From: Balanoglossus misakiensis
Lineage: Eukaryota > Animalia > Hemichordata
Direction of reading: 5' to 3'
Assembly: GCA_040954595.2 (NCBI GenBank)
Contig: JBECUI020000029.1
Location: forward strand, 124,001 to 188,000
Length of the DNA stretch: 64,000 nucleotides
Program-made: the position numbers and the translations under genes
Part shown: positions 1 to 25,037 of the stretch, one piece after another
How the letters are laid out: the number at the start of each line of letters is the position of its first letter
How positions within the stretch are numbered: position 1 is the first letter of the stretch
Notes under the pieces: generated by a model
The model's input: the letters and a program-made list of their open reading frames with translations, nothing else
What the model was told of the DNA's origin: nothing
Databases searched by the model: none

Positions 1-393
1 AGCCGTCCTGCATCAATTATTAATTGTGTACATGCACTAAAGCGCCCTCACTGCTGGGTGTGTTGTATGGTCTTTAACCCTGTTTCAAATTAGAGTACTT
101 TCTGCAATTTCAAGACAGATCTTACGTGCCATTGGAGAGCTCCATTGACTGGTCATTCATACTGTTTTCATTCATTCATTGCGGCATCAATATATTTTAT
201 CTATTCTAGCCAAAGAGCTTGGCACCTGTTGAAATGAACTCATCTGCTGTGGGCCAGTTTATTGGTGGCAGTTGAGCTGAGGAGAGCACCTTCCTTCCCG
301 GCACGCCACCAAGTAAAGTTCCACGCCGCCCACCACAGATGCCAGCATTCATTCATGCGAGTGAGTGTAATTGCAAATTTGCCTATTCTAGAT

Positions 394-570
394 CTGTAAT
401 GGAAATGGAGAAAGTACCTTATATTTTCTGTAAAATAGACATTTAATTGGCAAGCCGTCCTGCATCAATTATTAATTGTGTACATGCACTAAAGCGCCCT
501 CACTGCTGGGTGTGTTGTATGGTCTTTAACCCTGTTTCAAATTAGAGTACTTTCTGCAATTTCAAGACAG
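394..570. mobile_element. 177-bp MITE-like insert present in every 452-bp monomer (representative copy)
   Basis: Left end ctgtaatggaaatggagaaagtac vs reverse complement of right end ctgtcttgaaattgcagaaagtac: 19/24 identical. Flanked by AT on both sides (tctagAT|...|ATcttacg). Absent from short monomers. Confidence 0.7.
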
Positions 571-1617: not shown

Positions 1618-4600
1618 TTGGTGGCAGTTGAGCTGAGGAGAGCACCTTCTTTCCCGGCACGCCACCAAGTAAAGTTCCACGCCGCCCACCACAGATGCCA
1701 GCATTCATTCATGCGAGTGAGTGTAATTGCAAATTTGCCTATTTACGTGCCATTGGAGAGCTCCATTGACTGGTCATTCATACTGTTTTCATTCATTCAT
1801 TGCGGCATCAATATATTTTATCTATTCTAGCCAAAGAGCTTGGCACCTGTTGAAATGAACTCATCTGCTGTGGGCCAGTTTATTGGTGGCAGTTGAGCTG
1901 AGGAGAGCACCTTCCTTCCCGGCACGCCACCAAGTAAAGTTCCACGCCGCCCACCACAGATGCCAGCATTCATTCATGCGAGTGAGTGTAATTGCAAATT
2001 TGCCTATTCTAGATCTGTAATGGAAATGGAGAAAGTACCTTATATTTTCTGTAAAATAGACATTTAATTGGCAAGCCGTCCTGCATCAATTATTAATTGT
2101 GTACATGCACTAAAGCGCCCTCACTGCTGGGTGTGTTGTATGGTCTTTAACCCTGTTTCAAATTAGAGTACTTTCTGCAATTTCAAGACAGATCTTACGT
2201 GCCATTGGAGAGCTCCATTGACTGGTCATTCATACTGTTTTCATTCATTCATTGCGGCATCAATATATTTTATCTATTCTAGCCAAAGAGCTTGGCACCT
2301 GTTGAAATGAACTCATCTGCTGTGGGCCAGTTTATTGGTGGCAGTTGAGCTGAGGAGAGCACCTTCCTTCCCGGCACGCCACCAAGTAAAGTTCCACGCC
2401 GCCCACCACAGATGCCAGCATTCATTCATGCGAGTGAGTGTAATTGCAAATTTGCCTATTCTAGAATTCTTACGTGCCATTGGAGAGCTCCATTGACTGG
2501 TCATTCATACTGTTTTCATTCATTCATTGCGGCATCAATATATTTTATCTATTCTAGCCAAAGAGCTTGGCACCTGTTGAAATGAACTCATCTGCTGTGG
2601 GCCAGTTTATTGGTGGCAGTTGAGCTGAGGAGAGCACCTTCCTTCCCGGCACGCCACCAAGTAAAGTTCCACGCCGCCCACCACAGATGCCAGCATTCAT
2701 TCATGCGAGTGAGTGTAATTGCAAATTTGCCTATTCTAGATCTGTAATGGAAATGGAGAAAGTACCTTATATTTTCTGTAAAATAGACATTTAATTGGCA
2801 AGCCGTCCTGCATCAATTATTAATTGTGTACATGCACTAAAGCGCCCTCACTGCTGGGTGTGTTGTATGGTCTTTAACCCTGTTTCAAATTAGAGTACTT
2901 TCTGCAATTTCAAGACAGATCTTACGTGCCATTGGAGAGCTCCATTGACTGGTCATTCATACTGTTTTCATTCATTCATTGCGGCATCAATATATTTTAT
3001 CTATTCTAGCCAAAGAGCTTGGCACCTGTTGAAATGAACTCATCTGCTGTGGGCCAGTTTATTGGTGGCAGTTGAGCTGAGGAGAGCACCTTCTTTCCCG
3101 GCACGCCACCAAGTAAAGTTCCACGCCGCCCACCACAGATGCCAGCATTCATTCATGCGAGTGAGTGTAATTGCAAATTTGCCTATTCTAGAATCTTACG
3201 TGCCATTGGAGAGCTCCATTGACTGGTCATTCATACTGTTTTCATTCATTCATTGCGGCATCAATATATTTTATCTATTCTAGCCAAAGAGCTTGGCACC
3301 TGTTGAAATGAACTCATCTGCTGTGGGCCAGTTTATTGGTGGCAGTTGAGCTGAGGAGAGCACCTTCTTTCCCGGCACGCCACCAAGTAAAGTTCCACGC
3401 CGCCCACCACAGATGCCAGCATTCATTCATGCGAGTGAGTGTAATTGCAAATTTGCCTATTTACGTGCCATTGGAGAGCTCCATTGACTGGTCATTCATA
3501 CTGTTTTCATTCATTCATTGCGGCATCAATATATTTTATCTATTCTAGCCAAAGAGCTTGGCACCTGTTGAAATGAACTCATCTGCTGTGGGCCAGTTTA
3601 TTGGTGGCAGTTGAGCTGAGGAGAGCACCTTCCTTCCCGGCACGCCACCAAGTAAAGTTCCACGCCGCCCACCACAGATGCCAGCATTCATTCATGCGAG
3701 TGAGTGTAATTGCAAATTTGCCTATTCTAGATCTGTAATGGAAATGGAGAAAGTACCTTATATTTTCTGTAAAATAGACATTTAATTGGCAAGCCGTCCT
3801 GCATCAATTATTAATTGTGTACATGCACTAAAGCGCCCTCACTGCTGGGTGTGTTGTATGGTCTTTAACCCTGTTTCAAATTAGAGTACTTTCTGCAATT
3901 TCAAGACAGATCTTACGTGCCATTGGAGAGCTCCATTGACTGGTCATTCATACTGTTTTCATTCATTCATTGCGGCATCAATATATTTTATCTATTCTAG
4001 CCAAAGAGCTTGGCACCTGTTGAAATGAACTCATCTGCTGTGGGCCAGTTTATTGGTGGCAGTTGAGCTGAGGAGAGCACCTTCTTTCCCGGCACGCCAC
4101 CAAGTAAAGTTCCACGCCGCCCACCACAGATGCCAGCATTCATTCATGCGAGTGAGTGTAATTGCAAATTTGCCTATTCTAGAATCTTACGTGCCATTGG
4201 AGAGCTCCATTGACTGGTCATTCATACTGTTTTCATTCATTCATTGCGGCATCAATATATTTTATCTATTCTAGCCAAAGAGCTTGGCACCTGTTGAAAT
4301 GAACTCATCTGCTGTGGGCCAGTTTATTGGTGGCAGTTGAGCTGAGGAGAGCACCTTCTTTCCCGGCACGCCACCAAGTAAAGTTCCACGCCGCCCACCA
4401 CAGATGCCAGCATTCATTCATGCGAGTGAGTGTAATTGCAAATTTGCCTATTCTAGAATCTTACGTGCCATTGGAGAGCTCCATTGACTGGTCATTCATA
4501 CTGTTTTCATTCATTCATTGCGGCATCAATATATTTTATCTATTCTAGCCAAAGAGCTTGGCACCTGTTGAAATGAACTCATCTGCTGTGGGCCAGTTTA

Positions 4601-7600
4601 TTGGTGGCAGTTGAGCTGAGGAGAGCACCTTCCTTCCCGGCACGCCACCAAGTAAAGTTCCACGCCGCCCACCACAGATGCCAGCATTCATTCATGCGAG
4701 TGAGTGTAATTGCAAATTTGCCTATTCTAGAATCTTACGTGCCATTGGAGAGCTCCATTGACTGGTCATTCATACTGTTTTCATTCATTCATTGCGGCAT
4801 CAATATATTTTATCTATTCTAGCCAAAGAGCTTGGCACCTGTTGAAATGAACTCATCTGCTGTGGGCCAGTTTATTGGTGGCAGTTGAGCTGAGGAGAGC
4901 ACCTTCCTTCCCGGCACGCCACCAAGTAAAGTTCCACGCCGCCCACCACAGATGCCAGCATTCATTCATGCGAGTGAGTGTAATTGCAAATTTGCCTATT
5001 CTAGAATCTTACGTGCCATTGGAGAGCTCCATTGACTGGTCATTCATACTGTTTTCATTCATTCATTGCGGCATCAATATATTTTATCTATTCTAGCCGA
5101 AGAGCTTGGCACCTGTTGAAATGAACTCATCTGCTGTGGGCCAGTTTATTGGTGGCAGTTGAGCTGAGGAGAGCACCTTCCTTCCCGGCACGCCACCAAG
5201 TAAAGTTCCACGCCGCCCACCACAGATGCCAGCATTCATTCATGCGAGTGAGTGTAATTGCAAATTTGCCTATTCTAGATCTGTAATGGAAATGGAGAAA
5301 GTACCTTATATTTTCTGTAAAATAGACATTTAATTGGCAAGCCGTCCTGCATCAATTATTAATTGTGTACATGCACTAAAGCGCCCTCACTGCTGGGTGT
5401 GTTGTATGGTCTTTAACCCTGTTTCAAATTAGAGTACTTTCTGCAATTTCAAGACAGATCTTACGTGCCATTGGAGAGCTCCATTGACTGGTCATTCATA
5501 CTGTTTTCATTCATTCATTGCGGCATCAATATATTTTATCTATTCTAGCCAAAGAGCTTGGCACCTGTTGAAATGAACTCATCTGCTGTGGGCCAGTTTA
5601 TTGGTGGCAGTTGAGCTGAGGAGAGCACCTTCCTTCCCGGCACGCCACCAAGTAAAGTTCCACGCCGCCCACCACAGATGCCAGCATTCATTCATGCGAG
5701 TGAGTGTAATTGCAAATTTGCCTATTCTAGATTCTTACGTGCCATTGGAGAGCTCCATTGACTGGTCATTCATACTGTTTTCATTCATTCATTGCGGCAT
5801 CAATATATTTTATCTATTCTAGCCAAAGAGCTTGGCACCTGTTGAAATGAACTCATCTGCTGTGGGCCAGTTTATTGGTGGCAGTTGAGCTGAGGAGAGC
5901 ACCTTCCTTCCCGGCACGCCACCAAGTAAAGTTCCACGCCGCCCACCACAGATGCCAGCATTCATTCATGCGAGTGAGTGTAATTGCAAATTTGCCTATT
6001 CTAGAATCTTACGTGCCATTGGAGAGCTCCATTGACTGGTCATTCATACTGTTTTCATTCATTCATTGCGGCATCAATATATTTTATCTATTCTAGCCAA
6101 AGAGCTTGGCACCTGTTGAAATGAACTCATCTGCTGTGGGCCAGTTTATTGGTGGCAGTTGAGCTGAGGAGAGCACCTTCCTTCCCGGCACGCCACCAAG
6201 TAAAGTTCCACGCCGCCCACCACAGATGCCAGCATTCATTCATGCGAGTGAGTGTAATTGCAAATTTGCCTATTCTAGATCTGTAATGGAAATGGAGAAA
6301 GTACCTTATATTTTCTGTAAAATAGACATTTAATTGGCAAGCCGTCCTGCATCAATTATTAATTGTGTACATGCACTAAAGCGCCCTCACTGCTGGGTGT
6401 GTTGTATGGTCTTTAACCCTGTTTCAAATTAGAGTACTTTCTGCAATTTCAAGACAGATCTTACGTGCCATTGGAGAGCTCCATTGACTGGTCATTCATA
6501 CTGTTTTCATTCATTCATTGCGGCATCAATATATTTTATCTATTCTAGCCAAAGAGCTTGGCACCTGTTGAAATGAACTCATCTGCTGTGGGCCAGTTTA
6601 TTGGTGGCAGTTGAGCTGAGGAGAGCACCTTCCTTCCCGGCACGCCACCAAGTAAAGTTCCACGCCGCCCACCACAGATGCCAGCATTCATTCATGCGAG
6701 TGAGTGTAATTGCAAATTTGCCTATTCTAGATCTGTAATGGAAATGGAGAAAGTACCTTATATTTTCTGTAAAATAGACATTTAATTGGCAAGCCGTCCT
6801 GCATCAATTATTAATTGTGTACATGCACTAAAGCGCCCTCACTGCTGGGTGTGTTGTATGGTCTTTAACCCTGTTTCAAATTAGAGTACTTTCTGCAATT
6901 TCAAGACAGATCTTACGTGCCATTGGAGAGCTCCATTGACTGGTCATTCATACTGTTTTCATTCATTCATTGCGGCATCAATATATTTTATCTATTCTAG
7001 CCAAAGAGCTTGGCACCTGTTGAAATGAACTCATCTGCTGTGGGCCAGTTTATTGGTGGCAGTTGAGCTGAGGAGAGCACCTTCCTTCCCGGCACGCCAC
7101 CAAGTAAAGTTCCACGCCGCCCACCACAGATGCCAGCATTCATTCATGCGAGTGAGTGTAATTGCAAATTTGCCTATTCTAGATCTGTAATGGAAATGGA
7201 GAAAGTACCTTATATTTTCTGTAAAATAGACATTTAATTGGCAAGCCGTCCTGCATCAATTATTAATTGTGTACATGCACTAAAGCGCCCTCACTGCTGG
7301 GTGTGTTGTATGGTCTTTAACCCTGTTTCAAATTAGAGTACTTTCTGCAATTTCAAGACAGATCTTACGTGCCATTGGAGAGCTCCATTGACTGGTCATT
7401 CATACTGTTTTCATTCATTCATTGCGGCATCAATATATTTTATCTATTCTAGCCAAAGAGCTTGGCACCTGTTGAAATGAACTCATCTGCTGTGGGCCAG
7501 TTTATTGGTGGCAGTTGAGCTGAGGAGAGCACCTTCCTTCCCGGCACGCCACCAAGTAAAGTTCCACGCCGCCCACCACAGATGCCAGCATTCATTCATG

Positions 7601-10600
7601 CGAGTGAGTGTAATTGCAAATTTGCCTATTCTAGATCTGTAATGGAAATGGAGAAAGTACCTTATATTTTCTGTAAAATAGACATTTAATTGGCAAGCCG
7701 TCCTGCATCAATTATTAATTGTGTACATGCACTAAAGCGCCCTCACTGCTGGGTGTGTTGTATGGTCTTTAACCCTGTTTCAAATTAGAGTACTTTCTGC
7801 AATTTCAAGACAGATCTTACGTGCCATTGGAGAGCTCCATTGACTGGTCATTCATACTGTTTTCATTCATTCATTGCGGCATCAATATATTTTATCTATT
7901 CTAGCCAAAGAGCTTGGCACCTGTTGAAATGAACTCATCTGCTGTGGGCCAGTTTATTGGTGGCAGTTGAGCTGAGGAGAGCACCTTCCTTCCCGGCACG
8001 CCACCAAGTAAAGTTCCACGCCGCCCACCACAGATGCCAGCATTCATTCATGCGAGTGAGTGTAATTGCAAATTTGCCTATTCTAGATCTGTAATGGAAA
8101 TGGAGAAAGTACCTTATATTTTCTGTAAAATAGACATTTAATTGGCAAGCCGTCCTGCATCAATTATTAATTGTGTACATGCACTAAAGCGCCCTCACTG
8201 CTGGGTGTGTTGTATGGTCTTTAACCCTGTTTCAAATTAGAGTACTTTCTGCAATTTCAAGACAGATCTTACGTGCCATTGGAGAGCTCCATTGACTGGT
8301 CATTCATACTGTTTTCATTCATTCATTGCGGCATCAATATATTTTATCTATTCTAGCCAAAGAGCTTGGCACCTGTTGAAATGAACTCATCTGCTGTGGG
8401 CCAGTTTATTGGTGGCAGTTGAGCTGAGGAGAGCACCTTCCTTCCCGGCACGCCACCAAGTAAAGTTCCACGCCGCCCACCACAGATGCCAGCATTCATT
8501 CATGCGAGTGAGTGTAATTGCAAATTTGCCTATTCTAGATCTGTAATGGAAATGGAGAAAGTACCTTATATTTTCTGTAAAATAGACATTTAATTGGCAA
8601 GCCGTCCTGCATCAATTATTAATTGTGTACATGCACTAAAGCGCCCTCACTGCTGGGTGTGTTGTATGGTCTTTAACCCTGTTTCAAATTAGAGTACTTT
8701 CTGCAATTTCAAGACAGATCTTACGTGCCATTGGAGAGCTCCATTGACTGGTCATTCATACTGTTTTCATTCATTCATTGCGGCATCAATATATTTTATC
8801 TATTCTAGCCAAAGAGCTTGGCACCTGTTGAAATGAACTCATCTGCTGTGGGCCAGTTTATTGGTGGCAGTTGAGCTGAGGAGAGCACCTTCTTTCCCGG
8901 CACGCCACCAAGTAAAGTTCCACGCCGCCCACCACAGATGCCAGCATTCATTCATGCGAGTGAGTGTAATTGCAAATTTGCCTATTTACGTGCCATTGGA
9001 GAGCTCCATTGACTGGTCATTCATACTGTTTTCATTCATTCATTGCGGCATCAATATATTTTATCTATTCTAGCCAAAGAGCTTGGCACCTGTTGAAATG
9101 AACTCATCTGCTGTGGGCCAGTTTATTGGTGGCAGTTGAGCTGAGGAGAGCACCTTCCTTCCCGGCACGCCACCAAGTAAAGTTCCACGCCGCCCACCAC
9201 AGATGCCAGCATTCATTCATGCGAGTGAGTGTAATTGCAAATTTGCCTATTCTAGATCTGTAATGGAAATGGAGAAAGTACCTTATATTTTCTGTAAAAT
9301 AGACATTTAATTGGCAAGCCGTCCTGCATCAATTATTAATTGTGTACATGCACTAAAGCGCCCTCACTGCTGGGTGTGTTGTATGGTCTTTAACCCTGTT
9401 TCAAATTAGAGTACTTTCTGCAATTTCAAGACAGATCTTACGTGCCATTGGAGAGCTCCATTGACTGGTCATTCATACTGTTTTCATTCATTCATTGCGG
9501 CATCAATATATTTTATCTATTCTAGCCAAAGAGCTTGGCACCTGTTGAAATGAACTCATCTGCTGTGGGCCAGTTTATTGGTGGCAGTTGAGCTGAGGAG
9601 AGCACCTTCCTTCCCGGCACGCCACCAAGTAAAGTTCCACGCCGCCCACCACAGATGCCAGCATTCATTCATGCGAGTGAGTGTAATTGCAAATTTGCCT
9701 ATTCTAGAATTCTTACGTGCCATTGGAGAGCTCCATTGACTGGTCATTCATACTGTTTTCATTCATTCATTGCGGCATCAATATATTTTATCTATTCTAG
9801 CCAAAGAGCTTGGCACCTGTTGAAATGAACTCATCTGCTGTGGGCCAGTTTATTGGTGGCAGTTGAGCTGAGGAGAGCACCTTCCTTCCCGGCACGCCAC
9901 CAAGTAAAGTTCCACGCCGCCCACCACAGATGCCAGCATTCATTCATGCGAGTGAGTGTAATTGCAAATTTGCCTATTCTAGATCTGTAATGGAAATGGA
10001 GAAAGTACCTTATATTTTCTGTAAAATAGACATTTAATTGGCAAGCCGTCCTGCATCAATTATTAATTGTGTACATGCACTAAAGCGCCCTCACTGCTGG
10101 GTGTGTTGTATGGTCTTTAACCCTGTTTCAAATTAGAGTACTTTCTGCAATTTCAAGACAGATCTTACGTGCCATTGGAGAGCTCCATTGACTGGTCATT
10201 CATACTGTTTTCATTCATTCATTGCGGCATCAATATATTTTATCTATTCTAGCCAAAGAGCTTGGCACCTGTTGAAATGAACTCATCTGCTGTGGGCCAG
10301 TTTATTGGTGGCAGTTGAGCTGAGGAGAGCACCTTCTTTCCCGGCACGCCACCAAGTAAAGTTCCACGCCGCCCACCACAGATGCCAGCATTCATTCATG
10401 CGAGTGAGTGTAATTGCAAATTTGCCTATTCTAGAATCTTACGTGCCATTGGAGAGCTCCATTGACTGGTCATTCATACTGTTTTCATTCATTCATTGCG
10501 GCATCAATATATTTTATCTATTCTAGCCAAAGAGCTTGGCACCTGTTGAAATGAACTCATCTGCTGTGGGCCAGTTTATTGGTGGCAGTTGAGCTGAGGA

Positions 10601-13600
10601 GAGCACCTTCTTTCCCGGCACGCCACCAAGTAAAGTTCCACGCCGCCCACCACAGATGCCAGCATTCATTCATGCGAGTGAGTGTAATTGCAAATTTGCC
10701 TATTTACGTGCCATTGGAGAGCTCCATTGACTGGTCATTCATACTGTTTTCATTCATTCATTGCGGCATCAATATATTTTATCTATTCTAGCCAAAGAGC
10801 TTGGCACCTGTTGAAATGAACTCATCTGCTGTGGGCCAGTTTATTGGTGGCAGTTGAGCTGAGGAGAGCACCTTCCTTCCCGGCACGCCACCAAGTAAAG
10901 TTCCACGCCGCCCACCACAGATGCCAGCATTCATTCATGCGAGTGAGTGTAATTGCAAATTTGCCTATTCTAGATCTGTAATGGAAATGGAGAAAGTACC
11001 TTATATTTTCTGTAAAATAGACATTTAATTGGCAAGCCGTCCTGCATCAATTATTAATTGTGTACATGCACTAAAGCGCCCTCACTGCTGGGTGTGTTGT
11101 ATGGTCTTTAACCCTGTTTCAAATTAGAGTACTTTCTGCAATTTCAAGACAGATCTTACGTGCCATTGGAGAGCTCCATTGACTGGTCATTCATACTGTT
11201 TTCATTCATTCATTGCGGCATCAATATATTTTATCTATTCTAGCCAAAGAGCTTGGCACCTGTTGAAATGAACTCATCTGCTGTGGGCCAGTTTATTGGT
11301 GGCAGTTGAGCTGAGGAGAGCACCTTCTTTCCCGGCACGCCACCAAGTAAAGTTCCACGCCGCCCACCACAGATGCCAGCATTCATTCATGCGAGTGAGT
11401 GTAATTGCAAATTTGCCTATTCTAGAATCTTACGTGCCATTGGAGAGCTCCATTGACTGGTCATTCATACTGTTTTCATTCATTCATTGCGGCATCAATA
11501 TATTTTATCTATTCTAGCCAAAGAGCTTGGCACCTGTTGAAATGAACTCATCTGCTGTGGGCCAGTTTATTGGTGGCAGTTGAGCTGAGGAGAGCACCTT
11601 CTTTCCCGGCACGCCACCAAGTAAAGTTCCACGCCGCCCACCACAGATGCCAGCATTCATTCATGCGAGTGAGTGTAATTGCAAATTTGCCTATTCTAGA
11701 ATCTTACGTGCCATTGGAGAGCTCCATTGACTGGTCATTCATACTGTTTTCATTCATTCATTGCGGCATCAATATATTTTATCTATTCTAGCCAAAGAGC
11801 TTGGCACCTGTTGAAATGAACTCATCTGCTGTGGGCCAGTTTATTGGTGGCAGTTGAGCTGAGGAGAGCACCTTCCTTCCCGGCACGCCACCAAGTAAAG
11901 TTCCACGCCGCCCACCACAGATGCCAGCATTCATTCATGCGAGTGAGTGTAATTGCAAATTTGCCTATTCTAGAATCTTACGTGCCATTGGAGAGCTCCA
12001 TTGACTGGTCATTCATACTGTTTTCATTCATTCATTGCGGCATCAATATATTTTATCTATTCTAGCCAAAGAGCTTGGCACCTGTTGAAATGAACTCATC
12101 TGCTGTGGGCCAGTTTATTGGTGGCAGTTGAGCTGAGGAGAGCACCTTCCTTCCCGGCACGCCACCAAGTAAAGTTCCACGCCGCCCACCACAGATGCCA
12201 GCATTCATTCATGCGAGTGAGTGTAATTGCAAATTTGCCTATTCTAGAATCTTACGTGCCATTGGAGAGCTCCATTGACTGGTCATTCATACTGTTTTCA
12301 TTCATTCATTGCGGCATCAATATATTTTATCTATTCTAGCCGAAGAGCTTGGCACCTGTTGAAATGAACTCATCTGCTGTGGGCCAGTTTATTGGTGGCA
12401 GTTGAGCTGAGGAGAGCACCTTCCTTCCCGGCACGCCACCAAGTAAAGTTCCACGCCGCCCACCACAGATGCCAGCATTCATTCATGCGAGTGAGTGTAA
12501 TTGCAAATTTGCCTATTCTAGATCTGTAATGGAAATGGAGAAAGTACCTTATATTTTCTGTAAAATAGACATTTAATTGGCAAGCCGTCCTGCATCAATT
12601 ATTAATTGTGTACATGCACTAAAGCGCCCTCACTGCTGGGTGTGTTGTATGGTCTTTAACCCTGTTTCAAATTAGAGTACTTTCTGCAATTTCAAGACAG
12701 ATCTTACGTGCCATTGGAGAGCTCCATTGACTGGTCATTCATACTGTTTTCATTCATTCATTGCGGCATCAATATATTTTATCTATTCTAGCCAAAGAGC
12801 TTGGCACCTGTTGAAATGAACTCATCTGCTGTGGGCCAGTTTATTGGTGGCAGTTGAGCTGAGGAGAGCACCTTCCTTCCCGGCACGCCACCAAGTAAAG
12901 TTCCACGCCGCCCACCACAGATGCCAGCATTCATTCATGCGAGTGAGTGTAATTGCAAATTTGCCTATTCTAGATTCTTACGTGCCATTGGAGAGCTCCA
13001 TTGACTGGTCATTCATACTGTTTTCATTCATTCATTGCGGCATCAATATATTTTATCTATTCTAGCCAAAGAGCTTGGCACCTGTTGAAATGAACTCATC
13101 TGCTGTGGGCCAGTTTATTGGTGGCAGTTGAGCTGAGGAGAGCACCTTCCTTCCCGGCACGCCACCAAGTAAAGTTCCACGCCGCCCACCACAGATGCCA
13201 GCATTCATTCATGCGAGTGAGTGTAATTGCAAATTTGCCTATTCTAGAATCTTACGTGCCATTGGAGAGCTCCATTGACTGGTCATTCATACTGTTTTCA
13301 TTCATTCATTGCGGCATCAATATATTTTATCTATTCTAGCCAAAGAGCTTGGCACCTGTTGAAATGAACTCATCTGCTGTGGGCCAGTTTATTGGTGGCA
13401 GTTGAGCTGAGGAGAGCACCTTCCTTCCCGGCACGCCACCAAGTAAAGTTCCACGCCGCCCACCACAGATGCCAGCATTCATTCATGCGAGTGAGTGTAA
13501 TTGCAAATTTGCCTATTCTAGATCTGTAATGGAAATGGAGAAAGTACCTTATATTTTCTGTAAAATAGACATTTAATTGGCAAGCCGTCCTGCATCAATT

Positions 13601-16103
13601 ATTAATTGTGTACATGCACTAAAGCGCCCTCACTGCTGGGTGTGTTGTATGGTCTTTAACCCTGTTTCAAATTAGAGTACTTTCTGCAATTTCAAGACAG
13701 ATCTTACGTGCCATTGGAGAGCTCCATTGACTGGTCATTCATACTGTTTTCATTCATTCATTGCGGCATCAATATATTTTATCTATTCTAGCCAAAGAGC
13801 TTGGCACCTGTTGAAATGAACTCATCTGCTGTGGGCCAGTTTATTGGTGGCAGTTGAGCTGAGGAGAGCACCTTCCTTCCCGGCACGCCACCAAGTAAAG
13901 TTCCACGCCGCCCACCACAGATGCCAGCATTCATTCATGCGAGTGAGTGTAATTGCAAATTTGCCTATTCTAGATCTGTAATGGAAATGGAGAAAGTACC
14001 TTATATTTTCTGTAAAATAGACATTTAATTGGCAAGCCGTCCTGCATCAATTATTAATTGTGTACATGCACTAAAGCGCCCTCACTGCTGGGTGTGTTGT
14101 ATGGTCTTTAACCCTGTTTCAAATTAGAGTACTTTCTGCAATTTCAAGACAGATCTTACGTGCCATTGGAGAGCTCCATTGACTGGTCATTCATACTGTT
14201 TTCATTCATTCATTGCGGCATCAATATATTTTATCTATTCTAGCCAAAGAGCTTGGCACCTGTTGAAATGAACTCATCTGCTGTGGGCCAGTTTATTGGT
14301 GGCAGTTGAGCTGAGGAGAGCACCTTCCTTCCCGGCACGCCACCAAGTAAAGTTCCACGCCGCCCACCACAGATGCCAGCATTCATTCATGCGAGTGAGT
14401 GTAATTGCAAATTTGCCTATTCTAGATCTGTAATGGAAATGGAGAAAGTACCTTATATTTTCTGTAAAATAGACATTTAATTGGCAAGCCGTCCTGCATC
14501 AATTATTAATTGTGTACATGCACTAAAGCGCCCTCACTGCTGGGTGTGTTGTATGGTCTTTAACCCTGTTTCAAATTAGAGTACTTTCTGCAATTTCAAG
14601 ACAGATCTTACGTGCCATTGGAGAGCTCCATTGACTGGTCATTCATACTGTTTTCATTCATTCATTGCGGCATCAATATATTTTATCTATTCTAGCCAAA
14701 GAGCTTGGCACCTGTTGAAATGAACTCATCTGCTGTGGGCCAGTTTATTGGTGGCAGTTGAGCTGAGGAGAGCACCTTCCTTCCCGGCACGCCACCAAGT
14801 AAAGTTCCACGCCGCCCACCACAGATGCCAGCATTCATTCATGCGAGTGAGTGTAATTGCAAATTTGCCTATTCTAGATCTGTAATGGAAATGGAGAAAG
14901 TACCTTATATTTTCTGTAAAATAGACATTTAATTGGCAAGCCGTCCTGCATCAATTATTAATTGTGTACATGCACTAAAGCGCCCTCACTGCTGGGTGTG
15001 TTGTATGGTCTTTAACCCTGTTTCAAATTAGAGTACTTTCTGCAATTTCAAGACAGATCTTACGTGCCATTGGAGAGCTCCATTGACTGGTCATTCATAC
15101 TGTTTTCATTCATTCATTGCGGCATCAATATATTTTATCTATTCTAGCCAAAGAGCTTGGCACCTGTTGAAATGAACTCATCTGCTGTGGGCCAGTTTAT
15201 TGGTGGCAGTTGAGCTGAGGAGAGCACCTTCCTTCCCGGCACGCCACCAAGTAAAGTTCCACGCCGCCCACCACAGATGCCAGCATTCATTCATGCGAGT
15301 GAGTGTAATTGCAAATTTGCCTATTCTAGATCTGTAATGGAAATGGAGAAAGTACCTTATATTTTCTGTAAAATAGACATTTAATTGGCAAGCCGTCCTG
15401 CATCAATTATTAATTGTGTACATGCACTAAAGCGCCCTCACTGCTGGGTGTGTTGTATGGTCTTTAACCCTGTTTCAAATTAGAGTACTTTCTGCAATTT
15501 CAAGACAGATCTTACGTGCCATTGGAGAGCTCCATTGACTGGTCATTCATACTGTTTTCATTCATTCATTGCGGCATCAATATATTTTATCTATTCTAGC
15601 CAAAGAGCTTGGCACCTGTTGAAATGAACTCATCTGCTGTGGGCCAGTTTATTGGTGGCAGTTGAGCTGAGGAGAGCACCTTCCTTCCCGGCACGCCACC
15701 AAGTAAAGTTCCACGCCGCCCACCACAGATGCCAGCATTCATTCATGCGAGTGAGTGTAATTGCAAATTTGCCTATTCTAGATCTGTAATGGAAATGGAG
15801 AAAGTACCTTATATTTTCTGTAAAATAGACATTTAATTGGCAAGCCGTCCTGCATCAATTATTAATTGTGTACATGCACTAAAGCGCCCTCACTGCTGGG
15901 TGTGTTGTATGGTCTTTAACCCTGTTTCAAATTAGAGTACTTTCTGCAATTTCAAGACAGATCTTACGTGCCATTGGAGAGCTCCATTGACTGGTCATTC
16001 ATACTGTTTTCATTCATTCATTGCGGCATCAATATATTTTATCTATTCTAGCCAAAGAGCTTGGCACCTGTTGAAATGAACTCATCTGCTGTGGGCCAGT
16101 TTA
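1618..16103. repeat. Two copies of a 7243-bp higher-order repeat (20 monomers)
   Basis: Variant monomers recur at 1618, 8861, 16104. Order: 265,452,275,452,274,265,452,274,274,274,274,452,274,274, then 6x452, summing to 7243. The same period holds at 33730 to 40973. Confidence 0.97.
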
Positions 16104-16870
16104 TTGGTGGCAGTTGAGCTGAGGAGAGCACCTTCTTTCCCGGCACGCCACCAAGTAAAGTTCCACGCCGCCCACCACAGATGCCAGCATTCATTCATGC
16201 GAGTGAGTGTAATTGCAAATTTGCCTATTTACGTGCCATTGGAGAGCTCCATTGACTGGTCATTCATACTGTTTTCATTCATTCATTGCGGCATCAATAT
16301 ATTTTATCTATTCTAGCCAAAGAGCTTGGCACCTGTTGAAATGAACTCATCTGCTGTGGGCCAGTTTATTGGTGGCAGTTGAGCTGAGGAGAGCACCTTC
16401 CTTCCCGGCACGCCACCAAGTAAAGTTCCACGCCGCCCACCACAGATGCCAGCATTCATTCATGCGAGTGAGTGTAATTGCAAATTTGCCTATTCTAGAT
16501 CTGTAATGGAAATGGAGAAAGTACCTTATATTTTCTGTAAAATAGACATTTAATTGGCAAGCCGTCCTGCATCAATTATTAATTGTGTACATGCACTAAA
16601 GCGCCCTCACTGCTGGGTGTGTTGTATGGTCTTTAACCCTGTTTCAAATTAGAGTACTTTCTGCAATTTCAAGACAGATCTTACGTGCCATTGGAGAGCT
16701 CCATTGACTGGTCATTCATACTGTTTTCATTCATTCATTGCGGCATCAATATATTTTATCTATTCTAGCCAAAGAGCTTGGCACCTGTTGAAATGAACTC
16801 ATCTGCTGTGGGCCAGTTTATTGGTGGCAGTTGAGCTGAGGAGAGCACCTTCCTTCCCGGCACGCCACCA

Positions 16871-18677
16871 AGTAAAGTTCCACGTGCATTCCTGGCCCTG
16901 GTTTTATTTATGTTTACAGACAATATTGCATTTTTGTACAAGTATTTTAATCAACTATAAATTTTGAATGTGTCATTTACCTGAACCGGTCATGTTGACC
17001 AGAATGATACATTTCTGCCTTCACTCACCCTATAAATATGTGATTGAGACATAGGTCATTTGCATAAGCTAACATACCAGAAAGTAAGCATATCTGTTGT
17101 TTTCCCTGTGTCACTGCCATCAAAGTAAAAATTAGACGTTGTGTAGAGCAAACTCCAATTTTTTGTTCTCAATAAACATGGATGAATTACATAGAATGTG
17201 TTTGTTGTTTACAGTCTTTAAATGACACATTAGATTATGCACTTTACAAAACGTTTCTGAGAAACAAGTGACTAACTAGTTTCTTTCCACTGTGGCCAAC
17301 GTGGTTCACTGTTTGTGTCAGAATCTCTCTGTTTTGCAAGGATTTTGAAATCATAGTGGTGACATGCATAGTGAAAATCAGCTACTTTCAAATGTCCGTC
17401 ATGTTCATGCTGTAATTGAATTTTCAAAGCTGGGCTGGCGTGTTTTTTCTTATTTACATAAGTATCACACTTTATACATGTATCTTCATGGGGTTTTTTG
17501 AGTCCCGTATTTAGGTCCTCTCTCACAATTTTACGAAATATCGTATAACTGACAGTTGTTCTTCCCAGAAGAGATTGGTTGGTTATGAACTCTCGGTGTA
17601 ACTGCGATATACTGTGGGCCGGCGCCAGGTACGGTTTAAATCGAGGATTCCTGCAGTAGTGAGATTCTACAATTCTGTGCCTGCGTACGTGTTCAGTGAT
17701 ATCAGTCAGCAAATTTGGATTGAGTTTCCGACGATGCCCTTTGTGTCGGCCCCTTGCATCTGGCATCAGACCAGTAAAGTTCCATGTGCATTCCTGGCCC
17801 TGGTTTTATTTATGTTTACAGACAATATTGCATTTTTGTACAAGTATTTTAATCAACTATAAATTTTGAATGTGTCATTTACCTGAACCGGTCATGTTGA
17901 CCAGAATGATACATTTCTGCCTTCACTCACCCTATAAATATGTGATTGAGACATAGGTCATTTGCATAAGCTAACATACCAGAAAGTAAGCATATCTGAT
18001 GTTTTCCCTGTGTCACTGCCATCAAAGTAAAAATTAGACGTTGTGTAGAGCAAACTCCAATTTTTTGTTCTCAATAAACATGGATGAATTACATAGAATG
18101 TGTTTGTTGTTTACAGTCTTTAAATGACACATTAGATTATGCACTTTACAAAACGTTTCTGAGAAACAAGTGACTAACTAGTTTCTTTCCACTGTGGCCA
18201 ACGTGGTTCACTGTTTGTGTCAGAATCTCTCTGTTTTGCAAGGATTTTGAAATCATAGTGGTGACATGCATAGTGAAAATCAGCTACTTTCAAATGTCCG
18301 TCATGTTCATGCTGTAATTGAATTTTCAAAGCTGGGCTGGCGTGTTTTTTCTTATTTACATAAGTATCACACTTTATACATGTATCTTCATGGGGTTTTC
18401 TGAGTCCCGTATTTAGGTCCTCTCTCACAATTTTACGAAATATCGTATAACTGACAGTTGTTCTTCCCAGAAGAGATTGGTTGGTTATGAACTCTCGGTG
18501 TAACTGCGATATACTGTGGTCCGGTGCCAGGTACGGTTTAAATCGAGGATTCCTGCAGTAGTGAGATTCTACAATTCTGTGCCTGCGTACGTGTTCAGTG
18601 ATATCAGTCAGCAAATTTGGATTGAGTTTCCGACGATGCCCTTTGTGTCGGCCCCTTGCATCTGGCATCAGACCAGT
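16871..18677. repeat. 902-bp tandem duplication inside the cassette
   Basis: 16871-17775 matches 17773-18677 with a few substitutions. Junction has agt microhomology (gaccagt|aaagttcc vs gaccagt|tgaacag). Confidence 0.95.
17272..17775 (-). pseudogene. 5'-truncated duplicate of the transposase N-half gene (164-aa ORF from an internal Met)
   Basis: Matches the last 164 aa of the 18174-19136 ORF except two residues (D>A, R>K); created by the 902-bp duplication. Confidence 0.75.
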
Positions 18678-19130
18678 TGAACAGTGCATCATTTTGCTTA
18701 GAACGGTTCTAGTCCGCCTCTCACTAATGCCAAATAATTTCAGGAATGCATTTTTGCAGACAGTAACCGTTTCACCGCCTTCATTCACCAGGTGATAACG
18801 AACCGATTTCTTGTGTGACTTCATCTGCATATCCATCAGTTTGTAGAGCATCAAGTTCTGTTCATTATACACGCGACCATCAAAATATTTTCTCGTGGTG
18901 CCTAAAACATGCGTACTCCCAAGCTTCCGCATACAATTCCCTTGAACGCAGGCGCATTCCAAGGAAAGACTGTCAATATCTGGAAAAGGGCGATTTTTCC
19001 TTGGTTTTTGTCTCGGACACGTCTTTTTAGAATTCCTACGTGGCTTGTTGGCTCGAGCTGACAGTTCGGTTCTGCGTTGCTGCCACACAGGAATGGGTTC
19101 CCACGCATAAGCAACTCCCCGGCAGGCCAT
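18174..19130 (-). CDS. Sola1-like transposase, N-terminal half (putative DNA-binding/Zn region)
   Basis: Open ORF with first ATG at 19130. Motifs VCKNAFLKLFGIS, DARGRH, ESHYCR..YL, VSYTIFRKIV...KPHEDTCxxCD...HxxH resemble the N-terminal half of Sola1-type transposases. No catalytic motifs. Confidence 0.8.
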   Translation of the reverse strand: MACRGVAYAWEPIPVWQQRRTELSARANKPRRNSKKTCPRQKPRKNRPFPDIDSLSLECACVQGNCMRKLGSTHVLGTTRKYFDGRVYNEQNLMLYKLMDMQMKSHKKSVRYHLVNEGGETVTVCKNAFLKLFGISERRTRTVLSKMMHCSTGLMPDARGRHKGHRRKLNPNLLTDITEHVRRHRIVESHYCRNPRFKPYLAPDHSISQLHREFITNQSLLGRTTVSYTIFRKIVREDLNTGLRKPHEDTCIKCDTYVNKKKHASPALKIQLQHEHDGHLKVADFHYACHHYDFKILAKQRDSDTNSEPRWPQWKETS

Positions 19131-19177
19131 GGTCACAGCTGAAGTATTTGTTCAAGTACTGACTGACTAAACGCGGC

Positions 19178-20311
19178 ATGGAACAAACGAACGAACGACT
19201 TCACGTTCGGAAAAAAAATCGTTGCGAGCTGTTGGGTGCATGCCTCTATAGTTGTCGGCAACCGTTCTTTTTTATTGCTAAACAATGCTGTCAGAGCATG
19301 GAAGGTGTGGTGGAAAACGAACAGAGGTTTTGTACGACCAACGATTGGATGGTGCTACATATGGACTTCCACAAGTCATTGCCGGTTCCTAAACTCAGCT
19401 CTGAAGACTTTTACTTTAAATCGAAATTGCAAATGAAGCTCCTTGGAATTTACAACGGGACAACGGAAAAGATGCATTGTTATGTATGGACAGAGCTCGA
19501 TAGCAGAAAGTCTCCCGATGAAGTTATTACCTGTCTAAATCACTTTTTTTATAACTCGGGTGTGACCAGCAGACATGCAGTTATTTACAGCGACAACTGC
19601 CGTGCCGAATTCAAGTGTGGGAAGTTAATGTTTTACTATGACTATCTGTTACGAAAGGGCGTGTTTCGACGAATTGACTATAAAACTCTTGTGGCTGGAC
19701 ACACGTACTCCACCTGTGACCGAGTTTTTGCGTCCATTGAAAGGCATGCAAGTCGTTTCCAGAGTATAGAGACACCTCACGATTGGACATCTGTGATTCG
19801 AGGATCTTCTCTGAATGGGAACATTGGAGTTACGGAGATGACTCACAGAGACTTTTTCAATTATTCTGATTTCCTGAAAAATGAGTACGTTGTGCGTTAT
19901 GCAGATACAAACAATGTAACTTTTTACTACCAAGCCATGCACTATTTTAATTTTGGAGAAGGAGAAAGGCTTGATACCGACGGCAACCTCAGAACATTTA
20001 GTCATGCAGATAAAGTTTGGGTGAGAACATCTCTAGATCCAAGCGAGACCCCGATTGTAGTCGACTTTAGAAAGAAGAAGCAGAACCGGCGTTTACAAGA
20101 TTGTACGCTGAACAAACTTTATCAGGAACGTCGACCACTGGCGAGCAAAGTTTGGCGGGATCTTCAGAGTTTAGCCAAAAATTACCTGTCTCCGGAGGCA
20201 ATAGAATTTTATAGGAATCTACCGCTTCAGGAGAGTAGTGGCACCTCTGCAGACCCGTACGCCTTTCATGATGATGACGACGACGATGATGATGATATGG
20301 GCGGTGGTTGA
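19178..20311 (+). CDS. Sola1-like transposase, catalytic DDD half
   Basis: 377-aa ORF (alternative start ATG 19298, agcATGG). Motifs DFHKSLPVP..FYFKSKL, CYVWTE..EVITCL, SDNC, GHTYSTCDRVFASIE; acidic tail. AATAAA overlaps the stop (20311-20316). Confidence 0.88.
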   Translation: MEQTNERLHVRKKNRCELLGACLYSCRQPFFFIAKQCCQSMEGVVENEQRFCTTNDWMVLHMDFHKSLPVPKLSSEDFYFKSKLQMKLLGIYNGTTEKMHCYVWTELDSRKSPDEVITCLNHFFYNSGVTSRHAVIYSDNCRAEFKCGKLMFYYDYLLRKGVFRRIDYKTLVAGHTYSTCDRVFASIERHASRFQSIETPHDWTSVIRGSSLNGNIGVTEMTHRDFFNYSDFLKNEYVVRYADTNNVTFYYQAMHYFNFGEGERLDTDGNLRTFSHADKVWVRTSLDPSETPIVVDFRKKKQNRRLQDCTLNKLYQERRPLASKVWRDLQSLAKNYLSPEAIEFYRNLPLQESSGTSADPYAFHDDDDDDDDDMGGG

Positions 20312-20472
20312 ATAAACTGTCCTTTTCATGACGACAGTGATTTTGGATATTTGATGTGCGTGCACAGTTTATATGTAATATTTTCACACGAACGAGTTTT
20401 GACTGAATTTGATTAAAGAATGTACTCGATAATTAACAAATGTGCTGAATCGTGGTTATTATGTTGTTAATT

Positions 20473-20512
20473 TTTGTTTGTTTGTTTGTTTGTTTGTTTG
20501 TTTGTTTGTTTG
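20473..20512. repeat. (TTTG)10 microsatellite
   Basis: Read directly; same tract at 52503-52542. Confidence 0.95.
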
Positions 20513-20645
20513 TAAACAATTTCCGTTCATTCAACTGGCTACAAAGTTGGATTTTTGTACTGGGAAGCGATAAACTCGCACATCAAAACCGGGGAGACTC
20601 GATCATTTTTCCCTGCAGGTAGCCTGAAAAGCACCCGGGCAGAGA

Positions 20646-20718
20646 TTACGTCATATATGGTCCACTTTAATACGAAATTATGCAAATGTGACATTTCACG
20701 GAAACGGCGTATATAAAA
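20646..20718 (+). promoter_or_regulatory. Putative Pol II promoter of the wH-SET gene
   Basis: CRE-like TTACGTCA (20646), octamer ATGCAAAT (20680), TATAAAA (20712), about 100 bp upstream of ATG 20811. Confidence 0.55.
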
Positions 20719-20810
20719 GCGACCCTGGGCTATTGTTCGGAATGCGTCATCGACGAGAGAGTGACTGATAATTCTTCTACCTCGAGTCAACCATTCTGTA
20801 TATACTGAAC

Positions 20811-22148
20811 ATGGCTAGCTGGCGCAGGAAGAGACAAGGCAATGTGCGGTCTGTAATCAACGAACGGCACCGCTCAGTTCAGTGTCCCTTTCTTCAAAAG
20901 TGGATCGGTGAGCAATTGGTATTTTCAGGTCGTTCAGAGGATGAAGTCCAGTCCAGTACTGTATTTGAGAGCTACAAATGTTGGGTTGAAAACTATTCGT
21001 CGGCGGACAATCAAGTAATGATTATGGTTACTAAAGCTCGATTTTTCAAGGTGAGAATGATCGCATTTTTCTTTCCCCCCCCCCCCCTCCCTCCCTCCCT
21101 CCCCCAAGGGACTCGTTTTCTGTCTCTTTTAAACCTGTAACTTAACGAAAAGGAAGTTTTTCACATATCTCTTCGTTGACACTATAGCAATTTGGAGCGC
21201 GGATGCTTCAAGAGAAGAGCGTTACCAAATCAAAGTCGGCCGGGGTTAATATTTATAGAGGTGTTCGTCTGAAAGCTGGTTCGCGAAGAATCTCAACGGG
21301 GAAACCTGAGCACAGTGTACTTCAGACCAGGGCAAGGGCATTTCTTGATGACGCCAGCGTGACCGTTCCGATCGAGGTAAGAATGGTGTTTTGTTTGGAC
21401 TAGGACAATAGAACGTTGCAATGAGTGTGTCAATGGGTGTCCAAGTGCAAACGTGGTCTGCTTCTGTCCACAAATGCCATTAATTTTTGGCAGGATTTAT
21501 AAAATTGTCAATGAAGAATACAAAAATGAAAAACAACAGTTAATAGCAAACTGGTAGGATTGCAAGGGCTTGTAAAACGGTACACACTGTACCAGGAAGT
21601 TTGCAACACTAATGAAGAATGTATATGATATATTTAGGTGAGAACTGTTCGCGATCGCCGGGACGCAGGACGGTGCGCGTTTTCGACGAGGGATATTCAA
21701 GCCTGGGACGTCGTCTGCGAATACCGGGGCACGGTTATTAGCGTTGAAGAAGCTAGTCGGCGTGATGAGCTTTACAGGGCAGAGGGGAAACGACCACGCA
21801 TGTTCCATCTCTACATTGGAAAGAGACACGTTGTGTGAGTGTATCACTTAGTCGAATATATGGTCATATATTGCAAAGCATCTGTCGAAATAGAAAACGT
21901 AATATTGTCTATATTTTCCTCATTAACGCAGCATTGACGGATACGATGTCCCAGCCGGTGAAGAAAATTTAGCAGGCCTAATAAATCACAGTCAGCAGAA
22001 CGCCAACTTGGTACCGGTTCGGATCGGAGAGCGCCTGGTTTTCTTTGCAACCAGGAATCTTTGTCAGGGAGTAGAGCTTTTGTATGATTACGGTGACGGG
22101 GGTGAAGAGGATTTCTTCAGTGGTTCTCAAACTTTTCCTGAAAATTAA
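20811..22148 (+). CDS. Spliced gene (~280 aa): winged-helix-like domain + SETD8/PR-Set7-like SET lysine methyltransferase
   Basis: Exons 20811-21050, 21188-21376, 21638-21834, 21932-22148 with GT-AG introns joining in frame (phases 0,0,2). SET motifs GRCAFSTRDI..VCEYRG, IDG..NLAGLINHS..N, ELLYDYGD. N-terminal WIGEQL..SSTVFESYKCW..FFKQF..YRGVRLK resembles RFX/D5-C winged helices. Confidence 0.85.
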
Positions 22149-23051
22149 GGCATTAACACATCAACGCTTCGGGGTGTCGTAACGGCGGCGCGGCGGGGGG
22201 GGGGGGGACGTGAAAATGTTTGTATCAGGAACAAAATTCCCGTGCAAATCACCTTGATCCGGGTGGGTGGACTATTCGCGACAAATGTTGAAATCATACA
22301 AAGCATTTTACTTAATTAACCCATTTTTTTCATTTATTTGTTTACAGTTTACAACGTCATAGAGAAGTTGAACTAGAGACTGGATCAGCGTGGGTGACAC
22401 CATAGTACACCAATGTTTTCTTCAGTTTGATTCAATTGTAATTTAAAACTGAGATTGCCTAACGCTTTCCCAGATTTTTTTAACCACTGAGAAACTGTGG
22501 GTTTTTTTCTGGGTTTTGGTGCGAGGTGATCTCAGTCAGTGGTGTTAATTTAATTAATCATTTTCTTTTCCTATTTACGTCGACTGAAATGTATTTTGAT
22601 AGGTGATAGTCATACCATAAAAAAAATCTTACGGCGCGACTGCCAAAATGTACATTTATTTGTCCGTTCCAAGTTATTTTGTGTATGTGTGATGGGTGCC
22701 GGTGACTGTGCAGGGTTGATTTCCCTAGAGCGACTGTTATATTCGTTTTCCAACGATGATGAATTTACATGTTATTTGCTTGGCATTTTGACGCAGAGAC
22801 ACTTCTGAAAACACAAACCTATTAATTATGCCACGGGTGTAAATTGATCACATTAAAAGAGGCTTTAGACGTTTGCCGCGAGCTCCTGGTGGGCAGAATC
22901 TTGTCAGCCCAAATTTGACTATAAGTACATAGCCAATGATGTGACGCTCTCCCACATCCTTCGCCGCGCCTTTTCGCTGATTTACAGCATCTTGCGTAAA
23001 CACTGTCATTTGATCTTGCTTGGCAGAAGTCAACTTGCTCTATACTACATT

Positions 23052-23417
23052 ATGGCGGCCAAGCTCAACTGCATATCAGATAATGCCAAGGAGCGTTTGA
23101 GAGGCATCCTCGCCAGAAGGAGTCGCGTTTCCGGTGACTGTGTGCTCTGGACGGGTGCAGCTTGTCGAAACGGCTATGGCTCTATTACGTTCAGAGATGA
23201 GAACACTCTAACCGCCTATGTCCATCACATTGCACTCCTAATTAACGGAGTGCAATTGGTGGGCAGGCGGTTAGAGTGTTCTCATCTTTGCAACGAAAAG
23301 CTATGCATCCGCCCAGAGCACATTGTCCAGGAAACGCGACTCCTAAACATTTCACGAAAGACGTGCTTTAAATCCCCAAAAGGGGAGTGTCACCACGATC
23401 CCAGGTGCCTAAGGTGA
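23052..23417 (+). CDS. His-Cys box / His-Me finger endonuclease (I-PpoI-like), ~121 aa
   Basis: CVLWTG..NGYG..YVHH..ECSHLCNEKLCIRPEHIVQE...NISRKTC..CHHDPRC matches the zinc-binding His-Cys box pattern. ATG 23052; CCAAT upstream near 22933. A gtgagt overlaps the stop, so a small terminal intron is possible. Confidence 0.85.
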   Translation: MAAKLNCISDNAKERLRGILARRSRVSGDCVLWTGAACRNGYGSITFRDENTLTAYVHHIALLINGVQLVGRRLECSHLCNEKLCIRPEHIVQETRLLNISRKTCFKSPKGECHHDPRCLR

Positions 23418-24395
23418 GTAATCCTCTTCTCATTTGATATGTATTGTGTGACCCTGCAGTTGAAACGCTTTCATCAATAATTTGCGGCGCGTGGGTAATC
23501 TCGGTGTTATTGACAATGCAGCCGGCCCAAACATTTTTAAATTAACACTGTTTCTGACTGTATTAACGAAATGTCCAATTTGCAAGTAGCCTATAGACAA
23601 CCCTTTTGAATGAGTTTTGTCTCGTTGAGATTTTATACATAAGGAACAATCTAGATTTATTTTAGAAGACACTGTTCTTTTAAAACAGCTAGCATAATAC
23701 AGCTAAATTTCGGAATTTCCGGACAATTTTCGGAATTCCTTTTAAATTTGAGAAATTTTTCATCAGATATAAGTGTTACTATTTATTGGACATGTTTTTA
23801 TCATTGTTTACTTTTTAAGGTCATTCTCACCCCCCCCCCCCCCAAAAAAAGCCGCTTTAGGCTTCATGTTCAGTAAAAAATCTGGAAAGTTCAGCTGAAT
23901 TTTACACTGATCACACATTTTTGGGAAGGTCTGGCGCAAAATAAAGGATGACAAATGTAAATCTAATGTCACATTTGTAAACCTCTAAGTATTGTACACT
24001 CATTCTATTAAGTATATGCAAATAGTACGGATAATTTTTTCGGAATGTGGAATTCCGAAATTAGTTCGGAACGTGTTAGCAGTGAAGAGATCACCACTGA
24101 GGGTTGGAAGGCCTTGCCAGAAATTAACGCGTAAAGTACGCCCTCACAGGCCATGTAAACAAGGTCAAATAAGGCCGTCTGGCAAACGAATGATTAATTC
24201 AACGCGCCATTTGAGCCGAGCTGAGTTGGTCTGAGTTGCGTATCACACAGACTTAGGCTGAATGTCAGTGGAGTAACCAGTCCGTTTTAGATTTACCAAT
24301 GATGTGAATTTAATTTCTTCACCCAGAAAAACAGAACACAACTTGTCTGCAACATGATGCTGGAGGTGACACATGACAGAGAAGTGGATCCGCGT

Positions 24396-24730
24396 TGTCA
24401 ACACAGATGCCAGCATTCAAAAGGGGAGTGCCACCTGCTAAAATCAACTCATCTGCTGTTGGCCCATTTTACCTGTGGCAACTGTTCAGAGGAGACAACG
24501 TTTATTCCGTGCAAGCCAACACGCAATGTTGGGGTCTACCTGTCAACACAGATGCAAGCATTCATGTGAGTGAGTATCAGGACTGACCTTGTATTTGCTG
24601 AATAATTCATAATGCCTATTTTAGAATTCTTAGAGGCATTTGGAGTTCATTGCCTGGTCAACCAAACTACACCCCTTAACAGCTGAAACAAAATGCGTAT
24701 TGTGTTCATTCATTCATTGCATCAATATAT
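24396..24730. repeat. Diverged relic of the satellite monomer inside the cassette
   Basis: Colinear matches: acagatgccagcattca, cacctgctaaaatcaactcatctgctgttggcc, gtgagtgagt, tgcctattttagaattctta, ttcattcattcattgcatcaatatat. Confidence 0.85.
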
Positions 24731-25037
24731 ATAGGCAACATGAGTATCAAGTAGCACTATTTGTTTACGATTGTATTCATGAAAACTTCCCACTAACAAT
24801 TCCACAGTTAATATTGAACACATTTATCCAACAAGGTCAAAAGAAAAAGGGAATCTTCTGGTTCCAAAATACGCCACAAATGTGGGTCAACATACAGTGA
24901 AATATTATGGTGCTCAAATATGCAACATATCAAATCTGTCTCATCAAAGTCATGCTTTAAAAAAGAATTGAAAAGGTATTATTTATCCATTTGACTGCTG
25001 TATTTTCAGAAGGAAAACAAACTGAATTTGGTTTTTC

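Follow-up and report, generated by a model that had tools for sequence, protein, structure and literature searches.

Does a transposase encoded in two pieces on opposite strands represent a broken gene or an enzyme that evolved to work in two parts? The question is raised by a locus of the hemichordate Balanoglossus misakiensis, in a stretch of 64,000 nucleotides (GenBank assembly GCA_040954595.2, contig JBECUI020000029.1, positions 124,001 to 188,000) that is called the window below; all coordinates are counted from its first letter. Two uninterrupted open reading frames (ORFs), each with its own ATG and stop codon, point away from each other there, as an earlier reading of the sequence alone had placed them: an intronless gene of 318 amino acids (aa) on the minus strand (18174-19130), called here the N part, and a gene of 337 aa on the plus strand (19298-20311), the C part. 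That sequence-only reading proposed an evolved two-subunit transposase rather than a broken inversion. The comparisons reported here point the same way: the nearest homologues of both ORFs are stand-alone halves, and the head-to-head layout recurs at a distant locus. The two ORFs are thus probably the halves of one DDD transposase that underwent a single ancient fission, and they likely make up a two-subunit enzyme.

Two adjacent parts of one transposase family

The C part matches the Pfam family DUF7869 (E = 1.3e-14). The three putative catalytic aspartates announced by the sequence-only reading are present (D23, D99 and D141, with codons at 19364, 19592 and 19718) and, together with G134-H135, they are invariant in a 40-row alignment of 6 split and 34 fused proteins. 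The AlphaFold2 (AF2) model of the C part folds alone into an integrase/transposase core (predicted local distance difference test (pLDDT) = 89, predicted template modelling score (pTM) = 0.87), and its Foldseek matches, with probabilities close to 1 and E-values of 2e-4 or weaker, are to the cores of IstA and of retroviral integrases. The C part therefore combines the RNase H fold and the three acidic catalytic residues that define a DDD/E transposase; it also has a 13-residue beta-hairpin insert and an acidic tail.

The N part, predicted to be the DNA-binding subunit, has no match in Pfam. Its landmarks are a cysteine cluster (C61/C66/C125), the motifs DxRG and SHY, a winged-helix-like region (164-249), the motif DxCxxC..H279, a long helix (266-300) and a lineage-specific tail rich in tryptophan and proline (W/P). 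The CxxC..HxxH motif of the sequence-only reading survives as this DxCxxC..H motif, conservation within "HxxH" being limited to H279. The model consists of helical modules and the long final helix (pLDDT = 80, pTM = 0.53). Foldseek found no match to it, and VIA ranks a chain from the TnsABCD transpososome first (Z = 7.2, 70 residues), with TnsB at Z = 5.4; both values fall in the range of common arrangements. Residues 164-249 weakly resemble winged-helix DNA-binding domains (Z = 7.2, root-mean-square deviation 3.1, 70 residues).

Single-chain proteins connect the two parts. With the N part as query, a full HMMER search yielded 2,593 matches, and the best 150 of them were listed; the C-half profile matches behind the N match in 77 of these 150, and among those of at least 550 aa the C part follows the N part in 49 of 55. 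The adjacency that had been claimed for single-chain relatives is thereby borne out. Matches to DUF7869 occur in the C halves and also in the fused relatives, of which 5 of 7 exceed the cut-off. The distance from the second Cys of DxCxxC to the first catalytic Asp has a median of 51.5 residues in the fused proteins (measurable in 44 of 46). Since the N protein runs on for 64 residues beyond this motif and the C protein has 22 residues ahead of the first Asp (counted from the ATG at 19298), nothing was lost at the break and both ends were lengthened. By sequence comparison, the N and C ORFs are adjacent parts of one DUF7869/Sola-like DDD transposase family. Less sensitive searches missed these relatives: a word-based search with the N part found none in 267 candidates and a search for longer proteins with the C alignment none in 4,491, failures of sensitivity given that the HMMER search and the C-half profile did find such proteins. 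No relative of either half was found in the viral contigs searched, nor any with the C alignment in the prokaryotic genome contigs searched.

Start of the C gene and the spacer

Against the lengths of the two ORFs, 300 base shuffles of 17776-20500 gave a longest ORF of 78 aa on average and of at most 180 aa. The spacing of 47-167 bp between the ATGs was read correctly and corresponds to two possible starts of the C gene, leaving 47 bp (19130/19178) or 167 bp (19130/19298); from the upstream in-frame ATG the protein would measure 377 aa. The ATG at 19298 is favored because homologues start 15 residues before the first Asp in three of four distinct cases (P0001, P0002 and P0005, against 25 residues in P0003), and because a 4-bp deletion variant at 19237, found in runs X1 and X2 (organism A), shifts the frame only of a protein begun at 19178. 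On the same two observations, 19178 was rejected as the main start. A later gene model from Saccoglossus (P0004) starts 53 residues before the first Asp.

The 167-bp spacer between the starts (19131-19297), in which the 4-bp deletion is polymorphic, is a putative bidirectional promoter with an observed/expected CpG ratio of 1.31. Over 18648-19218 and 19241-20353, contigs from X1 and X2 match the window with 0-1 differences; the contig bearing the deletion spans 19237. These runs possibly derive from the window's own sample and are not independent; what is said of variation across copies rests on them. Runs X3 and X4 (organism B) consist of short low-depth pieces and were left out. A minority contig of both X1 and X2 carries a 7-base insertion at 19868 within the C ORF, and some copies or relatives are therefore frameshifted. 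The AATAAA hexamers that had been taken to follow each gene do exist at 20311 (plus strand) and 17805 (minus strand), but they are a weak signal, with 13 such hexamers in the 8.15-kb block described below.

Age and conservation of the split

The closest homologues of the two ORFs are stand-alone halves of matching size and not single ORFs. The six best N matches are 306-347 aa long (33-40% identity, E = 4e-63 to 6.5e-30), align over nearly their full length and stop at the end point of the window ORF. The C matches (3 of 795 candidates) are all stand-alone halves of 306-313 aa, with 37-51% identity, and start just before HxDF. The members whose source is named come from Saccoglossus kowalevskii (C half, XP_002739486) and from Oculina patagonica (N half, XP_078355980) and Actinostola sp. 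(N half, KAK3720986).

In trees reconstructed with 22 fused proteins picked from 46, the 11 N halves form one branch (support 97/95) and so do the 6 C halves (support 100/99); quick trees with all 46 fused proteins agree. A FastTree phylogeny of the best 150 of the 2,593 N matches likewise recovers a split branch of 16 rows with zero fused proteins (support 94). In both trees the split branch stands beside the same few fused proteins (P0127, P0147, P0026 and P0099), a placement of modest support in which P0127 may be affected by its long branch; this argues against an origin of the halves from different transposase lineages. As the split branch is nested among diverse fused proteins, fission is preferred over fusion, a direction that depends on midpoint rooting.

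The halves also share sequence of their own. The W/P-rich tail ends 6 of the 9 full N halves and is absent from the fused proteins, the 13-residue insert is common to the C halves (within FNFGxGERxD..G.V.TF.H), and 40 residues are common to the C halves and rare in the fused proteins (6 split versus 34 fused rows). Such conserved sequence past the break, as read from the alignments, speaks against exon fragments and would imply long selection. The split is likely old, with coral, sea anemone and acorn worm relatives sharing the half-gene lineage, and a two-part enzyme is likelier than a broken gene.

Layout at other loci

The search for other loci yielded five, 4 among 287 candidate stretches and 1 among 128; three of them have enough upstream DNA for the layout to be judged, that of L002 and L003 being too short. 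At L004, a distant metagenome locus, the N part (538-176, E = 8e-29) occupies the minus strand and the C part runs from 870 on the plus strand, head-to-head, with an extrapolated gap of ~170-200 bp between the starts, similar to that of the window. In the C tree the deepest fork separates the window from the L004 family, as placed through L002 (90% identical), and from this position the divergent layout may be ancestral. A Logan contig of 2,400 bp carries the best N match (P0008) and one of that length the best C match (P0001), which suggests that they are linked, probably on the same contig. The same split thus occurs elsewhere, as stand-alone halves in other animals and as a divergent pair in L004, but neither L001 nor L005 shows the layout: the split is general, gene order varies and the divergent layout is not general.

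Two side observations concern these loci. L005 is contig DMXI01000429.1 in a Microscillaceae metagenome-assembled genome, found with P0070, and its N-half gene has coral relatives; eukaryotic contamination is the likely source of the NCBI protein HAS44388.1. In L003 a 101-bp imperfect palindrome (87%) lies upstream of the C gene (74-174) and is absent from L001, which is 94% identical.

The surrounding block and its satellite

The gene pair lies in a non-satellite block of 8,153 bp (16885-25037) that also holds a SET gene and a His-Me ORF. A second copy of the pair, which the sequence-only reading had not noted, stands 32,030 bp downstream (50204-52341, with the N part at 50204-51160 on the minus strand and the C part at 51208/51328-52341 on the plus strand). 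The two blocks are 99.9% identical; the C ORF and the spacer are identical and the N ORF differs by 2 nucleotides (nt). On the minus strand, a tandem duplicate (16871-17775, 902-bp period, 5 differences) of the N gene's 3' part and of downstream DNA, likewise missing from that reading, contains a truncated ORF of 164 aa (17272-17766).

The SET gene is a predicted plus-strand gene of 280 aa (20811-22148) with four exons (20811-21050, 21188-21376, 21638-21834 and 21932-22148), and the GT-AG introns of the window mark it as eukaryotic; one alone of the tested splice combinations gives an open frame. Its SET domain follows an N-terminal part that presumably is winged-helix-like, to judge by its motif, and that has no Pfam hit. 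A divergent, decayed homologue with both parts accompanies the distant C gene of L001, upstream of it (3569-1596), in a different order and orientation. The His-Me ORF (23052-23417, plus strand, 121 aa) encodes a His-Me finger, I-PpoI-like endonuclease (PF05551, E = 2e-13), with a possible splice donor right before its stop. It contains an imperfect inverted repeat (23118-23344) whose 26-nt arms, 47 nt apart, are 96% complementary, so that an RNA hairpin could form.

Between the two blocks runs a satellite array of 452/274-bp units (25038-48914, plus strand), the unit being 71% like block positions 24429-24575. The satellite also occupies 1-16884 and 57073-64000, and there is a 7,243-bp higher-order repeat. 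The 452-bp and ~274-bp units differ by a 178-bp segment flanked by 28-bp inverted repeats, and every unit carries an AG...GTGAGT pattern like that of a degenerate exon. Because the right end of the block holds diverged relatives of the satellite (71% over 147 bp), the array likely grew from the element. An exon-like segment at 24303-24583 is 71% identical to the satellite unit and shares 18 bp with the terminal part of the His-Me ORF (23377-23394 versus 24418-24435), and repetition of a fragment of the nuclease gene may have given rise to the satellite. Since no element ends or target duplications were found, the current copies were perhaps spread by recombination of the array. Two further segments resemble MITEs (miniature inverted-repeat transposable elements). 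A near-perfect palindrome of 426 bp (48362-48787, 398 of 426 positions self-complementary), apparently flanked by TA and inserted in the satellite at the second block but not the first, resembles a young MITE; a MITE-like segment of ~370 bp (23706-24078) has 23-nt arms at 23717-23739 and 24049-24071, and loose contig ends at both of its edges suggest copies elsewhere.

Alternative explanations

Several observations weigh against an ancient two-subunit transposase. No N gene was found in the 4.3 kb upstream of the C gene of L001 and no C gene in the 3.9 kb upstream of the N gene of L005, both contigs stopping at the 3' end of the gene. Stops or frameshifts mark L004, L001 and L003 as decayed copies. 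Neither terminal inverted repeats nor abutting ends nor target duplications were found in or around the block, in a search limited to two copies, both inside the tandem array, with no dispersed copy. Confidence is lower for the N model (pTM = 0.53), whose best fold match is modest (Z = 7.2). The trees rely on midpoint rooting and on the LG+G4 model, and they cover the best 150 of 2,593 N matches. Three members of the N branch (P0022, P0091 and P0105, 124-198 aa) resemble exon or contig fragments, and most stand-alone homologues are known as proteins alone, while ORF callers can split spliced genes.

Several scenarios may explain these observations. One is that the fission is old and conserved but that the halves no longer transpose together and have taken on another role, such as the upkeep or cutting of the satellite, the marking of chromatin together with the SET protein, or a host function. 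The missing element ends, the partners missing upstream in L001 and L005 and the near-identical blocks in a tandem macro-array, which suggest recombination-driven spread, would agree with such a change of role. Nevertheless, it appears unlikely: the catalytic triad is invariant, both genes are kept side by side in the window and in L004, several decayed related copies are 90-94% alike, as mobile families would show, and one cluster has two members on equal-sized contigs, which is also mobile-family-like. Alternatively, the halves could be rejoined as RNA by trans-splicing, or be exons of one gene in other species, the product being a single-chain protein. The opposite strands exclude cis-splicing in the window and in L004, the position of the N-terminal Met and the C-terminal tail beyond the joining point are conserved, and the halves are separate proteins in eukaryotic gene models of NCBI; in their face this scenario is quite improbable, even though a T-rich tract followed by an AG stands shortly before the ATG at 19298, another AG lies 8 nt before the N start and some N-branch proteins resemble exon fragments.

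A third explanation would be that a recent inversion broke a single-gene transposase, whose dead copy was amplified with the satellite, or that the arrangement is an assembly error. The region is highly repetitive, it contains the recent 902-bp duplication, and no single long contig piece among those listed spans 19219-19240. Yet this explanation is largely refuted and hardly credible any longer. A recent broken inversion is opposed by nearest relatives that are themselves half genes (33-51% identity) and by the same head-to-head layout in L004, and the spacer is identical between the two window copies; the contigs from X1 and X2, possibly of the window's own sample, reach the spacer from both sides and the deletion contig spans 19237.

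The ancient fission proposed here would have separated strand 1 of the RNase H fold from the long helix that follows DxCxxC..H. Its products, one subunit predicted to bind DNA and one predicted to be catalytic, would be expressed together from the 167-bp spacer and would assemble in trans after translation. The N subunit would bind the DNA of the element and recruit the C subunit, the new W/P-rich tail and the new beta-hairpin being candidate contact surfaces between the two, and the SET and His-Me genes would be accessory cargo. On a broader and more tentative view, the window might represent a widespread and so far undescribed animal transposon lineage, turned by ancient fission into an obligate two-subunit enzyme with a bidirectional promoter, carrying a SET gene and a homing-type endonuclease and spreading as 32-kb tandem units made mostly of element-derived satellite.

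Comparison with known systems

The single-chain relatives may be of Sola1 type, a label that is reportedly in use for DDD transposases of this kind and that is provisional here. In Sola1 transposases a His stands a short way ahead of the third Asp of the DDD triad, and the whole transposase lies in one ORF. The His is found in the window (G134-H135-x5-D141, invariant); the single ORF is not, its place being taken by two ORFs on opposite strands. The window shares with Sola1-type single-chain transposases (DUF7869/PF25273 core) the GH-x5-D triad, the upstream DxCxxC..H and the DUF7869 match. Unlike these single chains of 550-800 aa, it has two genes on opposite strands with a lineage-specific tail and hairpin, and its block adds the SET and His-Me genes. 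In the bacterial IS3/IS1 elements, OrfA and OrfB are co-directional frames fused by programmed frameshifting. The predicted DNA-binding and catalytic parts similarly occupy separate reading frames in the window, but a frameshift fusion is excluded there because the ORFs lie on opposite strands. Terminal inverted repeats and a 4-bp AWWT target duplication are given as the Sola1 hallmark in an excerpt of PMC3845634; neither was found around the block, both copies of which sit in a tandem array.

In excerpts of PMC12730594, the Nuwa families of PIF/Harbinger pair a transposase with a Myb/SANT DNA-binding protein, and SET genes occur in HarbingerS and in MuDR of Phytophthora. As in PIF/Harbinger, catalysis and DNA binding are here predicted to reside on two proteins, and by analogy the window may hold a Sola-type cut-and-paste transposase in a Harbinger-like two-protein arrangement. 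The Harbinger partner, however, is an unrelated Myb/SANT protein, whereas the window subunits map to adjacent parts of one single-chain family, the N protein being homologous to the N part of the single-chain relatives. Since both subunits map to one such family, the two-gene state is best explained by fission, with the direction taken from the nesting. KolobokP, described in an excerpt of PMC9587614, has a His-Me nuclease, ~450-bp repeats and multimers. A His-Me ORF also occurs in the window (PF05551, E = 2e-13), but membership in KolobokP was rejected: the C alignment has no C/DxxH between the second and third acidic residues, and the block edges (16884/25038) cut satellite units internally. 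Unlike KolobokP, whose long terminal direct repeats bear inverted repeats, the block does not end at unit ends, its His-Me gene is on the strand of the C gene, and dozens of the 452-bp unit are strung together in arrays. In the full-text literature searched, a scope that leaves Repbase Reports and subscription journals outside, no account of a split Sola transposase was found.

Implications

Known eukaryotic two-protein transposases are partnerships of unrelated proteins, and the conserved fission of a single-chain family differs from them. It offers a natural point at which DNA recognition can be separated from catalysis, and it allows a direct test of how two-subunit transposases originate. 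It also points to a blind spot of annotation, as the expectation of one ORF would label such elements broken. The SET gene, the His-Me nuclease and the element-derived satellite together offer a testable case of a transposon seeding and inhabiting a satellite array. If the broader view tentatively proposed above is right, the DNA-binding subunit would be a separable targeting module.

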